From the IMG/VR virus record IMGVR_UViG_2681813135_000006: 18,486 nucleotides of DNA, one strand, 5' to 3'. Position numbers and translations under genes: made by a program. The notes below the pieces were generated by a model that saw only the letters and a program-made list of their open reading frames with translations, was not told the origin of the DNA and made no database searches. The stretch comes from a virus. Taxonomy: Duplodnaviria > Heunggongvirae > Uroviricota > Caudoviricetes. Below are positions 6,908 through 10,403 of the stretch, piece by piece; the stretch's first letter is position 1, and every line of letters starts with the position of its first letter.

Positions 6908-7321
6908 ATGAGGGGCATTTGTTAAAAAACAATAGCCCCACATTAGATCAATATTGGCTCCGGCATTTCTGGATAAAAGCTTCTATGCTACGGCGCTCAT
7001 AGCGAACAATCTTAGCGCTGAACTTTACACGGGGCCAATGTAGACCGGTGTCGGTGTTCTGTATTCCATTTACATAATGTTTTTTGCGTAATTCCCAGCT
7101 TCTGGCATACCTCGCCCGGAGTGAGGAGATCATCAGGTTGCTCAGTCATGTTATGCCTCGCTGTTATCTGGGGTGATGATTAGCAGCTTCCAGATGGCTG
7201 AGACATACATAGCCTGATGTTTCGCATCGACTAGGGCATTATGCATGTCACCTTCAAACGGCATGTCCCGAGTTCTCCCTTTTCGCCGCTTTCGCGTCGC
7301 ATATTCTCCAAACGGTATTTA

Positions 7322-8087: not shown

Positions 8088-8282
8088 TCACACCCCCTTC
8101 ACGCCAATGCCAGCAGTAAATCGCGACGGTGACCAATCGCAATATGTGTTCGACTCCGTGTGTCCAAAAATTGCTTTACAACGATGGATATGGTGGCAAT
8201 TACCACATGTTATGCCAGCCGGTAATCGCATCTTGTCGGGATCGGCTGGGTCATAATTCAACGCCAGTTTTTCGGTTGTCAT
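8088..8282 (-). CDS. Small Cys/His-rich hypothetical protein (64 aa)
   Basis: ATG at 8282 overlaps the upstream TGA (ATGA); SD GGGGAGG 8 nt upstream; CGNCHHIHRC motif. Confidence 0.5.
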   Translation of the reverse strand: MTTEKLALNYDPADPDKMRLPAGITCGNCHHIHRCKAIFGHTESNTYCDWSPSRFTAGIGVKGV

Positions 8283-8617
8283 GCTGGCATCCTCCCCACG
8301 ATATCTATAACCCGACGCATAACCGCACTTCCCCGAAAATCTGCTGGTAACTCAATCAGAGGCTTACTCGAACCGTATGAGAATCGTTGGAGATCGAAAT
8401 CAATTACAGCCTTTGGGTCCCTGAACAAATCTAGACGACCGTAACGAATGAGTTCGCCGCGTTCGGCTGCTACGCGGAAATACTTCTCAGCAGTCTGACG
8501 ATGCAGCGACAACATCTGTGATGCCTCGCTAACGGTTAAGCGTCCACGGATTTTCACCTCTTCGATGATCACCCGGATAAGTGCCGCCTGCTCTTCTGGT
8601 GTATTTGGTCTTGGCAT
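8279..8617 (-). CDS. Hypothetical HTH-containing protein immediately downstream of the O-like gene
   Basis: ATG at 8617, 2 nt after the O-like TAA, with GGGGG SD; helix-turn-helix-like stretch LTVSEASQMLSLHRQTAEKYFRVAAERGELIRYGR. Confidence 0.6.
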   Translation of the reverse strand: MPRPNTPEEQAALIRVIIEEVKIRGRLTVSEASQMLSLHRQTAEKYFRVAAERGELIRYGRLDLFRDPKAVIDFDLQRFSYGSSKPLIELPADFRGSAVMRRVIDIVGRMPA

Positions 8618-8619
8618 GC

Positions 8620-9531
8620 TTACCCCCTGAATCCGGGTGGGATTGTTTTGTCTGGCTCAGAAATGCGGTTCACATCCCTGCCCGTTTTGCGAGCGTTGAG
8701 AGCGAACTTCGGTTTAAACAGTCCCTGGTACCCGTTGGCGATACTGGTGTTGATCACATCAACGGGGTCATGCCCAGCGTCCAGGCAAGCCTTGAGCAAC
8801 TTGAATGCTTTGGTGACCGTCATTTCGGTCTTGATGGCTTTGCCAGACTGTTGGCGGTAGGCCACCCACTCACTCCAGGACACAGAATCAAGCCACTCAG
8901 GAACGGGAATCGTCAGCGGGTCAAACTTACCCTTCCCCTTTGGGGGATTAGAGGGGGTTAGATCTGTATTTATATTTGTATTTGGAAGAATGTCTTTGGT
9001 GTTCCCTGTTTTCAGGGATACCTCTCCCTGTTTTTGGGGATGGTTATCCCCGTTTTCAGGGATGATTGAAGGGGTAAAATTGCTATCCCTGAATTCAGGG
9101 ATGGTAATAACCCATGTGACAACTTCAGCAGCAGGAAACACCGCTGGACACTTCATGCAATTTGGCTTGGTATACGCCCATTTATCCAGGCTGGTATTAA
9201 TCCCTATGTATCTGGTTTGCCCAATGCGGCGCAGGATGATGATGTTCCGATAGGCAAGGCTCAACACGGCTTCAGAGACGTGTTTCACCTTCAGCGTCGT
9301 TTTATCTGCAATGAGGCTATTGGCGATGCGGTCAGAACTCTTAGACCAGCCATAGGTCAGACGAACGATAGCATTCAGCACCCGGAACTCGCGCCCGGAT
9401 AGTTCGACGATACACAGGGCATCCTGAATCTGGTTGGCCAGGCGCAAATAGCCTTTCTCCAGTTCAGCCATGCTGCTCTCCTGTTTCCCCTGCTGTGTGG
9501 GGAATTTGAATATTTCAGCGGTATTTGACAT
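8620..9531 (-). CDS. Lambda O-like replication initiator; start re-called to ATG at 9531
   Basis: N-terminus MSNTAEIFKFPTQQ...EKGYLRLAN...REFRVLNAIVRLTYGWSKSSDRIANS parallels lambda O (MTNTAKILNF...DGYARLSN...RQFKVLLAILRKTYGWNKPMDRITDS) by recall. Iterons and an AT-rich tract lie inside the gene. SD GGAGAA 5 nt upstream of the ATG. Confidence 0.85.
   Translation of the reverse strand: MSNTAEIFKFPTQQGKQESSMAELEKGYLRLANQIQDALCIVELSGREFRVLNAIVRLTYGWSKSSDRIANSLIADKTTLKVKHVSEAVLSLAYRNIIILRRIGQTRYIGINTSLDKWAYTKPNCMKCPAVFPAAEVVTWVITIPEFRDSNFTPSIIPENGDNHPQKQGEVSLKTGNTKDILPNTNINTDLTPSNPPKGKGKFDPLTIPVPEWLDSVSWSEWVAYRQQSGKAIKTEMTVTKAFKLLKACLDAGHDPVDVINTSIANGYQGLFKPKFALNARKTGRDVNRISEPDKTIPPGFRG
9003..9105. 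repeat. Replication origin iterons: four roughly 18-19 bp palindromic repeats (TCCCTG...CAGGGAT type) inside the O-like gene, with an AT-rich tract at about 8961-8990
   Basis: tccctgttttcagggata (9003), tccctgtttttggggatgg (9025), tccccgttttcagggatga (9047), tccctgaattcagggatgg (9087). Spacing is 22, 22 and 40 bp. Resembles lambda ori iterons, with the AT-rich region downstream in the direction of O transcription. Confidence 0.7.
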
Positions 9532-9615
9532 ACTGTTCTCCGCAATTACGCACAGTTTTTGCACCTGAAAGCCGTTGGTGTTCGAGCACCGCGGCTTTCG
9601 CCATTTCTGAGCCCG

Positions 9616-10173
9616 TCATAGCGCACCACCCAGCATCGTTGTAACCATCGCCATAATGGGCGCCACAGAATCAGGTCCGTCCAGGTAGAGCTTGGCTACG
9701 ATGCTCTCGCTGATTTCCTTCATCCGTTCGTGTCTGGGGGCTTTGAGGACGACAGCCTGTATCGCCTCAGCGTCTTCTTTCACCGACCTGGCGACACGAA
9801 CCGCAAAGCAGTCGTGCTTAATCACGCGATCCCGGTACGCCAGCGGCAGAACCGAAATTATTACCGGCGCCAGCTGCTCGACGTTCGCCCGGTAGGCCGG
9901 TGATTTCTCGTGGTTGTCCAGCCAGCGAAACAGCTTCACGTTCCACACATCGGCGCTGCCGGTCATGTCAATGCTGTCAAGCTCGGCCTGTTCGGCAGCC
10001 TCTTTAATCGCCAGAGCGACCGCCACGCGGCCCTCTGCCGCCGCCCAGGCGCGGACGGCAGAACAGATAGCCCGGTGATCGACCGGCTGGCCTTCAGCCT
10101 CACTGTGTTGATACTGGAATTTCAGGTGCTCTGATGGCGCTCTGTTATTCTGTTGAAAAGAAAGTGTTTGCAT
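9616..10173 (-). CDS. YdaT-like/CII-position regulatory protein (185 aa)
   Basis: ATG at 10173 with AGGAG SD. Directly downstream of the Cro/YdaS-like gene. The motif LAPVIISVLPLAYRDRV resembles the recalled Rac YdaT; family is tentative. Confidence 0.55.
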   Translation of the reverse strand: MQTLSFQQNNRAPSEHLKFQYQHSEAEGQPVDHRAICSAVRAWAAAEGRVAVALAIKEAAEQAELDSIDMTGSADVWNVKLFRWLDNHEKSPAYRANVEQLAPVIISVLPLAYRDRVIKHDCFAVRVARSVKEDAEAIQAVVLKAPRHERMKEISESIVAKLYLDGPDSVAPIMAMVTTMLGGAL

Positions 10174-10184
10174 TGTCAGTGCTC

Positions 10185-10403
10185 CTACTTTGGTAATCCG
10201 TCAGTGGGATTTGGATAGAGATCAGGGCGCAGCTCGTGGGGGGTTACGCCTGTCATTTTGAAAATCGGGAAGATATAGCTTGGCGGGACGATCCCTTGGT
10301 CACGATTCTTCCAATGACTTACAGACATACTCGTCACACCAAGCGCGATGCTGAGCTTTCTGGCAGAGCCAGCGGCTTTAATTGCTTTATCGAGTGCGGA
10401 CAT
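10185..10403 (-). CDS. Cro/YdaS-like HTH regulator (72 aa), divergent from the repressor
   Basis: ATG at 10403 with AGGAG 6 nt upstream. HTH-like KAAGSARKLSIALGVTSMSVSHWKN. Position and size match cro/ydaS in an immunity region. Confidence 0.75.
   Translation of the reverse strand: MSALDKAIKAAGSARKLSIALGVTSMSVSHWKNRDQGIVPPSYIFPIFKMTGVTPHELRPDLYPNPTDGLPK

Follow-up and report, generated by a model that had tools for sequence, protein, structure and literature searches.

Phage lambda carries its replication origin inside the gene of its own initiator, in the linker-coding part of an O gene that begins with a Phage_rep_O N-terminal domain. About four inverted-repeat iterons of about 18 bp, with TCCC...GGGA arms, a central AAAA, and a mean spacing near 22 bp, are followed straight after the last unit by an A-rich AT tract that opens with ACAC(A/C)AAAGACA, and each of these features recurs in the 18,486-bp stretch of DNA analyzed here (the window). 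In lambda, in-frame deletions in the AT tract inactivate the ori but leave the O protein able to complement (PMC6022878). Variation of the kind 4 versus 6 iterons has been documented for lambda and Stx phages, and the extra iterons of the Stx phages 933W and P27 (six iterons) are placed distal to the AT tract of an otherwise lambda-type origin (PMC7466680). The O protein encoded in the window is 74% identical over its full length to those of Gifsy-1, Gifsy-2, and SPN3UB of Salmonella ("Lambda gpO homolog"). The Gifsy-2 record carries no iteron annotation, and in the searchable literature we found no description of Gifsy iterons, the two matches being plasmid iterons, and no experimental report of O binding or initiation for the Gifsy-type iteron. 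We conclude that positions 8930-9102 of the window are very probably the replication origin of a lambdoid E. coli prophage of the Gifsy-1/-2 type, embedded in the linker-coding part of its own O initiator gene.

The gene that holds this site lies on the minus strand at 8620-9531, stop codon included, and encodes an O-type replication initiator of 303 aa, with the origin in the middle of the gene. RefSeq annotates the product as "replication protein" (WP_029403925.1), and the protein matches Pfam Phage_rep_O with an E value of 1.3e-27 as well as TIGR01610 (phage_O_Nterm). Translation starts at the ATG at 9531 (MSNTAEI..., as in all homologues) and not at the GTG at 9564. The N-terminal, iteron-binding domain is encoded at 9178-9471 on the minus strand, where Pfam residues 32-129 of the 314-aa ORF correspond to residues 21-118 of the 303-aa protein. 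A megablast search against phages gave a sole match of 65 bp, at the 5' end of O, and relatives were found by protein-level search. The iterons occupy approximately codons 144-177 and the AT tract codons 178-192, so that the origin sits, as in lambda, between the N-domain and a conserved C-domain that begins at about residue 194. An earlier note, made from the sequence alone, had proposed a lambda ori-in-O arrangement for this gene, and the order of its parts agrees with that proposal, with a Phage_rep_O N-domain, repeats in the linker that follows it, and then an A-rich AT tract.

The iteron array consists of four 18-bp palindromes with the coding-strand consensus ATCCCYGAAAACRGGGAT. A scan of the whole window with the pattern TCCCYGNNNNCRGGGA, allowing at most one mismatch, returned four matches, all four within 100 bp, against 0.09 expected by chance from 200 shuffles, none of which yielded four. 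The note's four palindromic iterons inside an O-like gene are thus well supported. All are on the minus strand, and in the direction of transcription they are iteron 1, the distal unit (9085-9102; ATCCCTGAATTCAGGGAT), iteron 2 (9046-9063; ATCCCTGAAAACGGGGAT), iteron 3 (9024-9041; ATCCCCAAAAACAGGGAG), and iteron 4, which adjoins the AT tract (9002-9019; ATCCCTGAAAACAGGGAA). Direct reading of the plus strand and a repeat finder gave TCCCTGTTTTCAGGGA at 9003-9018, TCCCTGTTTTTGGGGA at 9025-9040, TCCCCGTTTTCAGGGA at 9047-9062, and TCCCTGAATTCAGGGA at 9086-9101. From start to start the steps are 39, 22, and 22 bp, with one distal unit followed by three proximal ones. The 22-bp spacing that had been claimed for the repeats is therefore correct for the three proximal units and wrong for the distal unit, which is separated from them by a 21-bp spacer (9064-9084, unstranded) whose sequence is poorly conserved and differs among relatives. 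Like lambda, the window has inverted-repeat iterons of ~18-19 bp in tandem, spaced by about two helical turns and here four in number, but in contrast to lambda the 39-bp step sets off a distal cluster.

Palindromes of this kind could also fold into hairpins, in single-stranded DNA or in the mRNA of O, that control translation, terminate transcription, or serve for primosome assembly, and would then not be duplex sites for a binding protein. The strand does fold far better than its shuffles (z = -6.0), but a good fold comes automatically with any set of palindromes. The one terminator-like match, on the plus strand at 9013-9030, is antisense to the O gene. At the sole variable position of the arms (6, paired with 13), 86 related iterons have C/A in 35 cases, T/G in 28, T/A in 19, and C/G in 4, which argues that pairing is not maintained, and we regard a hairpin function as highly improbable. 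A scan for promoters and terminators gave no signal above chance, whether around the origin or in the cro/cI-like intergenic region. Since a simple scan of that intergenic region picked up no sigma-70-like promoter, activation of the origin by transcription is an assumption.

All relatives that share the N-domain have the window's iterons, 3-11 copies each, at the corresponding place in the gene. These relatives comprise 16 that were compared individually (Gifsy-2, 13 enterobacterial genomes from different genera compared in full, E. coli GZ2408P, and phage Tbat2_3) and at least 120 viral contigs. Homologues with the same N-domain that lacked the repeats were what the earlier note had named as evidence against its reading, and the survey found the repeats throughout. 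The iteron type is the common Gifsy-1/-2 one and hence not confined to the window; Gifsy-1, Gifsy-2, and SPN3UB agree with the window in iteron consensus, 39-bp step, AT tract, and the DnaT-like tail of O. The iterons stay constant across relatives with 56-100% N-domain identity, including those with another C-domain. Tbat2_3 keeps the N-domain, iterons, and AT tract and differs in the C-domain and the downstream gene, and 16 viral contigs with the same origin junction also have a different C-domain. The junction between iteron 4 and the AT tract, AAAACAGGGAACACCAAAGACATT, is exact in at least 120 viral contigs. As in lambda-type origins generally, the iteron is inherited with the O N-domain and differs between specificity classes.

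The number of units is the variable part of the layout. The distal iteron position holds 1-4 units in relatives, the 39-bp step is found in most layouts, and the "1+3" layout of the window is the commonest among viral contigs. Iteron number changes in 22-bp steps; Gifsy-2 has 7 iterons (4+3) and the window 4 (1+3), and the difference of 66 bp, or 22 codons, preserves the reading frame. Close relatives in the window's family therefore vary in iteron number as Stx phages do (PMC7466680). The Stx phages, however, have lambda-type iterons and an O-P pair, whereas the window has another iteron family and another C-terminal module.

Conservation by codon position separates selection on the DNA from selection on the protein. 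Mean pairwise identity at third codon positions is 0.94 in iterons 2-4 and the AT tract, against N-domain and C-domain values of 0.67 and 0.62, while at first and second positions the origin shows no excess of conservation over the domains. This indicates a constraint on the DNA beyond the needs of the protein, as in lambda-type origins, and the AT-tract deletion result in lambda (PMC6022878) fits such a constraint in the Gifsy-type origin. If the repeats were instead a repeated peptide in a flexible linker with no function as DNA, the repetitive, low-complexity character of the linker (IPENGD / HPQKQG / SLKTGN) would be accounted for. This explanation is hardly credible, however, when the raised conservation is at third positions and the three proximal units each fall in a different reading frame, 22 not being divisible by 3. 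It also leaves the palindromy of the units unexplained, since protein selection does not account for it.

Directly promoter-distal of the iterons is the presumed DNA-unwinding element, an AT-rich tract at 8958-8999 (minus strand; GATC at 8961-8964) that is A-rich on the coding strand, with 21 A versus 10 T. Its GC content is about 27% (27.5% at 8960-8999). No 40-step stretch of duplex in the O gene is less stable than 8957-8997, and in the window as a whole only 0.4% of such stretches are. The O gene is on the minus strand and the tract therefore lies downstream of the repeats in the direction of transcription, in agreement with the note. An easily melted, strand-asymmetric tract in this position is a lambda-type feature, and the homology with the lambda ori extends to sequence, as the first ~25 nt are similar to the same part of the lambda origin. 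Among 14 relatives the tract is nearly invariant, third codon positions included. Beyond it, a short G/C palindrome, TCCCC-N-GGGGA (8934-8947, unstranded), lies where the stretch conserved as DNA ends on the right. Third-position identity is still 0.89-0.95 down to about 8930, and a CCCC(C)-N(1-3)-GGGG palindrome is found at the same place in 100 of 138 related loci.

Plasmid iterons have roles in autoregulation and copy-number control. The iterons of the window might likewise be operators for O autoregulation or for copy-number control by handcuffing, with the true origin elsewhere in the prophage, and a distal cluster that varies in number would suit such a role. Against this, the iterons adjoin the least stable duplex of the gene, a tract that is strand-asymmetric, conserved as DNA, and similar at its start to the lambda unwinding region. 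No match to the DnaA-box consensus (TTWTNCACA) occurs anywhere in the 18,486-bp window. We therefore consider the operator explanation improbable. An origin of the plasmid Rep/iteron type was ruled out by the palindromic units, the lack of a DnaA box, and the location inside the initiator gene.

With 8930-9102 taken as an origin, lambda serves as the model from which we infer how O binds, the DNA unwinds, and the helicase is loaded. The 18-bp palindromes would be bound by dimers of the O N-domain, and a bent "O-some" would arise on the three units spaced at 22 bp, or about two helical turns, whose central A-tracts are in phase. This complex would destabilize the adjoining A-rich AT tract, and the O C-domain would recruit the replicative helicase via a DnaC-type loader. 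The distal iteron at 9085-9102 would be part of a variable auxiliary cluster.

The site is a lambda-type ori with Gifsy-type specificity and is otherwise of an ordinary, widespread type. Its iteron, TCCCYG-AAAA-CRGGGA, differs from the TCCCTC-AAAAC-GAGGGA of lambda in the inner arm bases and in arm spacing, with 3-4 mismatches per unit. The note's claim of a different iteron sequence was confirmed in a comparison with two of the four phages it names, lambda (ATCCCTCAAAACGAGGGA) and phi80 (TTCCCGAAAACGGGAA). The N-domain is 40% identical to lambda O and also to phi80 gp15, and the similarity is confined to this domain. Given the distinct iteron and an N-domain identity of only 40%, a separate specificity class is the natural reading, and the distinct O specificity suggested in the note appears likely from the sequence comparison. 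The same architecture, at the same position in the gene, is found in phi80 gene 15/mEp237 O, mEpX1 O, and the O of Klebsiella phage ST11-VIM1phi8.2, and each has its own iteron, with TGTCTCGAAGTTAGAGACA in mEpX1 and TTACCCGAATCAGGTAA in the Klebsiella phage. In the latter two, O is paired with a DnaC-like loader, and the right flank CCCCC..AATCCCCC is in common with the window. Five O lineages thus have five iterons at the same gene position, and four of the five, the window's included, open the AT tract with ACAC(A/C)AAAGACA; the opening differs in phi80/mEp237.

Among lambdoid phages, whose iterons vary together with the O N-domain, this makes one further specificity class. The main use of the analysis is in annotation, where the Gifsy-1/-2 family origin can now be given an iteron, ATCCCYGAAAACRGGGAT, a layout, and a length of ~170 bp. 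Such prophages occur commonly in Enterobacteriaceae, Salmonella and E. coli among them, and none of the records examined marks the origin.

In one respect the window departs from a lambda-type replication module, as no partner helicase-recruiting gene (P, DnaC-like, or DnaB-like) directly follows O. The partner is P in lambda and a DnaC/IstB-like ATPase in the window's relatives; at the position of the relatives' DnaC-like helicase loader the window has a DUF977 gene (8279-8617, minus strand; Pfam DUF977). Of the 14 genome loci with this complete O C-domain, 13 have a loader directly after O, as do Gifsy-2, E. coli GZ2408P, and 75 of 82 viral contigs with the same C-domain, and homology to E. 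coli GZ2408P stops right past the O stop codon. The absent partner gene is a property of the replication module and not of the cis-acting site. The prophage looks decayed, being only ~32 kb long and containing several partial structural genes and pseudogenes. Origin activity in the window's copy is uncertain, and this copy either relies on the host DnaB-DnaC or is no longer active.

There is a serious possibility that the origin is intact in sequence and functionally dead. In a cryptic prophage that had lost its loader, O could bind and no replication would follow, and the conservation of the site would reflect the recency of the loss. This is consistent with the absence of the DnaC-like gene that in most relatives lies within a few bases after O, with the short prophage and its pseudogenes, and with the rarity of the variant, which is present in 3 of 5426 complete E. 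coli genomes (at 100% identity). On the other hand, the O frame, the four iterons, and the AT tract are all intact, and the layout is the one commonest in viral contigs. There is also a second, independent loader-less arrangement, in which O is followed by a ~585-aa protein (L056, L075, L090, and L143), so the phage may be able to do without a loader of its own. The host has its own DnaC, and O itself ends in the DnaT-like tail.

This tail, the last 19 codons of O (8623-8679, minus strand; RDVNRISEPDKTIPPGFRG), reproduces the C-terminal tail of E. coli DnaT and was detected by phmmer, NCBIfam, and hhalign. The two tails match at 14 of 19 residues, with phmmer matches to PDB chains 2ru8, 6aep, and 9zbt, an NCBIfam DnaT E value of 2.3e-5, and an hhalign probability of 95%. 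Compared with E. coli DnaT, only the tail of O matches. A profile of 14 C-domains aligns with DnaT over the last 22 residues only, a Pfam search of the O C-domain gave no match, and the C-domain outside the tail has no significant similarity to DnaT. We therefore claim a DnaT-like tail and dropped a DnaT-like domain for O. The C-domain is unrelated to the P-binding domain of lambda O, and its single-sequence AlphaFold2 model (mean pLDDT 45) was too poor for a fold search. A 2026 preprimosome paper states no function for the DnaT tail. The bacterial protein DopC is described as joining an O N-domain to a DnaT C-terminal motif (PMC5509034); the DopC locus was reported to be without iterons, whereas the O gene in the window has them.

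The missing loader and the DnaT-like tail suggest a route by which initiators of this kind could use the host DnaB-DnaC directly. In the relatives, O and the dnaC-like gene are 2-5 nt apart, a pairing that mirrors the E. coli dnaT-dnaC operon. It is conceivable, if doubtful, that a Gifsy-type O may fire its origin without a phage loader, the tail engaging the replication-restart or DnaB-DnaC loading machinery of the host. Both loader-less arrangements would then be functional modules, and the bacterial dnaT-dnaC operon would have in the O-dnaC-like pair its phage counterpart, or its source.

The oriJ of the Rac prophage (ydaU-ydaV) was considered as a relative of this origin and rejected because YdaU is a DUF1376 protein, with no Phage_rep_O match. 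Rac and the window have YdaS/YdaT-like, RecE/RecT, and YdaE-like genes in common, but their initiators are different.

The iterons and AT tract lie within a minus-strand reading frame whose true start is the ATG at 9531 (MSNTAEI...), giving an O gene at 8620-9531 that encodes a 303-aa protein. Residues 21-118 of this protein match Pfam Phage_rep_O (E 1.3e-27) as well as TIGR01610 phage_O_Nterm. Reading of the sequence together with a repeat finder located four palindromic units within 8700-9400. On the minus (coding) strand these are the distal iteron 1 at 9085-9102 (ATCCCTGAATTCAGGGAT), iteron 2 at 9046-9063 (ATCCCTGAAAACGGGGAT), iteron 3 at 9024-9041 (ATCCCCAAAAACAGGGAG), and the proximal iteron 4 at 9002-9019 (ATCCCTGAAAACAGGGAA). 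Allowing at most 1 mismatch, the degenerate core TCCCYGNNNNCRGGGA has four matches in the 18,486-bp window, all of them at this site; shuffling gives an expectation of 0.09, and four matches were reached in 0 of 200 shuffles. The AT tract follows directly after iteron 4, with a GC content of 27.5%, and is A-rich on the coding strand (21 A versus 10 T). By nearest-neighbour energies, no other 40-step stretch of the O gene is less stable than 8957-8997, and across the window only 0.4% of such stretches are. The earlier note's description of a lambda-type origin embedded in an O-like gene, with four palindromic repeats and an AT-rich tract downstream in the direction of transcription, is borne out in substance by these features. 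Its 22-bp spacing holds for the two proximal steps and fails as a uniform rule, since the steps from start to start in the direction of transcription are 39, 22, and 22 bp.

A GATC (Dam/SeqA) site is found inside the AT tract at 8961-8964, as AGATCT, and is kept in most relatives; phi80 and mEp237 likewise have AGATCT in their own AT tracts. Beyond the tract, at 8934-8947, is a short palindrome, TCCCCTTTGGGGGA, with iteron-like outer arms and a shorter center.

For each codon position, mean pairwise identity was calculated across 14 full-length relatives aligned by codon. Identities at positions 1, 2, and 3 were 0.94, 0.95, and 0.67 in the N-terminal domain and 0.89, 0.91, and 0.62 in the C-terminal domain, versus 0.90, 0.92, and 0.94 across iterons 2-4 and the AT tract (8953-9063). 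In a sliding window, synonymous-site identity forms a plateau of 0.9-1.0 from about 9063 to about 8930, while conservation is far lower in the distal unit and in the spacer of the 39-bp step than in this proximal block. Third-position conservation in the origin block equals that of the other positions, which is not a product of protein selection. As 22 cannot be divided evenly by 3, the proximal iterons fall into three different frames and are translated as IPENGD, HPQKQG, and SLKTGN; selection on the protein therefore cannot explain their similarity. This constraint on the DNA agrees with results in lambda, where in-frame deletions in the AT tract kill origin function although the O proteins left by them, while shorter, remain able to complement (PMC6022878). 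The 8934-8947 palindrome lies within the synonymous-site plateau, and 100 of 138 related loci have a palindrome of the form CCCC(C)-N(1-3)-GGGG in its position; the element may mark a right-hand boundary or serve as an additional binding site. At the only arm position that is degenerate, C/A (35), T/G (28), T/A (19), or C/G (4) is found among 86 related iterons. Because complementarity between the arms is not maintained there, this pattern argues for iterons that act as two putative half-sites read independently in duplex DNA rather than as a hairpin.

Other lambdoid phages carry iterons of their own at the equivalent place in O: TTCCCGAAAACGGGAA in phi80 gene 15 and mEp237, TGTCTCGAAGTTAGAGACA in mEpX1, and TTACCCGAATCAGGTAA in Klebsiella phage ST11-VIM1phi8.2. 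Lambda has annotated iterons of the ATCCCTCAAAACGAGGGA type, spaced by 20, 24, and 23 bp and followed by a high-AT region. This comparison upholds the view that the iteron sequence differs from those of lambda and phi80. The N-domain of the window O shares 40% identity with its counterparts in lambda and phi80, and outside this domain no similarity to the lambda and phi80 proteins was found. Although the iterons differ, the tract after the last iteron opens recognisably alike in the window (AACACCAAAGACATTCTTCCAAA), lambda (GACACAAAAGACACTATTACAAAAG), mEpX1 (ACACACAAAAGACATTCTTTAAAGAC), and the Klebsiella phage (AACACAAAAGACAAACATACAAAAGAC). Flyfo siphovirus Tbat2_3 (L031 1498-2532) has an N-domain 68% identical to that of the window and the same iterons and AT tract, but an unrelated C-domain and a DUF6475 gene downstream, with the mosaic junction just past the origin. 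Another C-domain is found in at least 16 viral contigs with the window-type origin junction. From these exchanges, the N-domain and origin are inherited as a single cassette, the classic lambdoid pattern, with which the distinct O specificity proposed in the earlier note agrees. At the right flank of the AT tract, CCCCC..AATCCCCC is common to the window and the loader-paired O genes (Gifsy-2, mEpX1, and the Klebsiella phage; L002, L028, L029), and TTCGTCnGAGAATTCTGnCGAATCCTCTGAC is common to P-paired O genes (lambda, phi80, and mEp237; L003, L004, L030). A recombination boundary between the origin and the C-domain types seems to lie at this flank.

A scan with one genome per species found 20 related loci, spanning Citrobacter, Leclercia, Pseudescherichia, Enterobacter, Yokenella, Kluyvera, Silvania, and others. 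The repeats are not missing from homologous O genes: 16 of the 20 loci (54-95% identity) have at least three window-type iterons at the same place, a Pantoea locus (59% identical) has two, and the Gifsy-2 O gene has seven units with the window's consensus, arranged as four, a 39-bp step, and three. Two layouts predominate, "1 + 3" with an O of 303-304 aa and "3-4 + 3" with an O of about 325 aa, and the difference between them is exactly 66 bp, which is 3 x 22 bp or 22 codons. At least 120 IMG/VR viral contigs contain the exact 24-mer spanning the junction of the last iteron and AT tract. Among the matches listed, 39 contigs have 4 iterons (the "1+3" of the window), 38 have 6, 23 have 7, 4 have 5, 3 have 3, and 1 has 11, the last with two 39-bp steps; the other junction contigs listed have irregular layouts or are interrupted by the contig end. 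"1+3" is thus the commonest single variant among the matches listed, and the arrangement in the window is therefore not a damaged one. Iteron clusters grow and shrink by 22-bp units, and the 93% identity over 58 nt of the two Gifsy-2 clusters (L002 3469-3631) suggests a recent duplication. Iteron number also varies between Stx phages, with six, and lambda, with four, and the extra distal iterons of Stx phages are weakly bound yet required (PMC7466680). A search of the accessible literature found no description of Gifsy-type iterons, and the records examined for Gifsy-2 and E. coli carry no annotation of them. What the window contains is an origin of lambda type that falls into the common Gifsy-1/-2 specificity class and is unremarkable for a lambdoid prophage. 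In practice it is of use for annotation, and only the missing loader and the DnaT-like tail of O merit follow-up.

Anatomy, conservation, and homology are shown, while the steps of initiation are extrapolated from lambda. O dimers would bind the palindromes through the N-terminal domain, and the three proximal sites, which are spaced by about two helical turns and have an A-tract at their center, would form a bent nucleoprotein complex that destabilises the adjacent AT tract. The helicase would then be recruited by the O C-terminal domain. The partner in this O family is a DnaC/IstB-like ATPase (Pfam IstB_IS21), not P. This loader is encoded 2-5 nt past O in Gifsy-2 and in 13 of 14 genome loci with a complete O C-terminal domain of this type, in E. 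coli GZ2408P, and, among the matches listed, in 75 of 82 viral contigs whose O has the same C-domain. The last 19 residues of O, RDVNRISEPDKTIPPGFRG (8623-8679, minus strand), are a near copy of the E. coli DnaT C-terminal tail, RDVNTVSEPDSQIPPGFRG, and the pairing of O with a dnaC-like gene resembles the E. coli dnaT-dnaC operon. The match is restricted to the tail, no significant likeness to DnaT being found in the remainder of the O C-domain. Bacterial DopC is likewise reported to fuse an O N-domain to a DnaT C-terminal motif (PMC5509034).

In the window the loader is absent from this position, and a DUF977 gene starts about 3 bp past the O stop codon (8617-8622). The corresponding junctions in loader-bearing loci are L025 2998-3003 (GZ2408P) and L002 4011-4014 (Gifsy-2), and homology to GZ2408P stops at the O stop codon or immediately past it. 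Nowhere in the early region of the prophage is a loader gene annotated. The origin sequence itself is intact. Since the loader is absent and the prophage is only about 32 kb, with truncated genes and pseudogenes, the origin in this copy may be silent. Yet a phage loader may be dispensable if the host DnaB-DnaC can be used, since 7 of the 82 contigs, among the matches listed, likewise have no adjacent DnaC-like gene. Four of these seven (L056, L075, L090, L143) have an unrelated arrangement with a protein of about 585 aa after O, a second, independent loader-less arrangement. In these four contigs O is of the same type and 327 aa long, with the DnaT-like tail plus 2 extra residues, and the ~585-aa protein, beginning MHTTNHP...FSPDCRHFSKAKG, is encoded about 370 nt past O.

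Over the O gene, the window matches three complete genomes of E. coli (PSJ-22, NCTC11023, and ES7) at 100% identity, and the closest phage proteins are the O homologues of Gifsy-1, Gifsy-2, and SPN3UB, with 74% identity across their whole length. The PSJ-22 prophage with this gene is integrated beside kch. Its early-transcription order is a divergent cI-like repressor, a YdaS-like gene in the Cro position, a YdaT-like gene, O, and DUF977; farther on are DinI, RusA, Q, and the holin and lysozyme genes, and on the opposite side RecE, RecT, and integrase. Upstream of O in the window (9616-10403, minus strand), the Cro and CII positions are occupied by YdaS-like and YdaT-like genes, which belong to Pfam "toxin" families. 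Rac likewise has YdaS/YdaT, but its initiator, YdaU, is a DUF1376 protein rather than O-type. With a size of only ~32 kb, several truncated structural genes, and pseudogenes, the prophage looks cryptic. A partial 3'-5' exoribonuclease pseudogene is located at 7151-7270, and several truncated structural genes lie upstream in PSJ-22 (L032; 925-940 kb). Positions 120-129 of the window, in the lysis-gene region, are a run of 10 N. In a second, neighbouring PSJ-22 prophage (904-921 kb; L032 7091-8585), a "DnaT-like ssDNA-binding domain-containing protein" precedes replication protein P and DUF977, giving another combination of the same replication-module parts.
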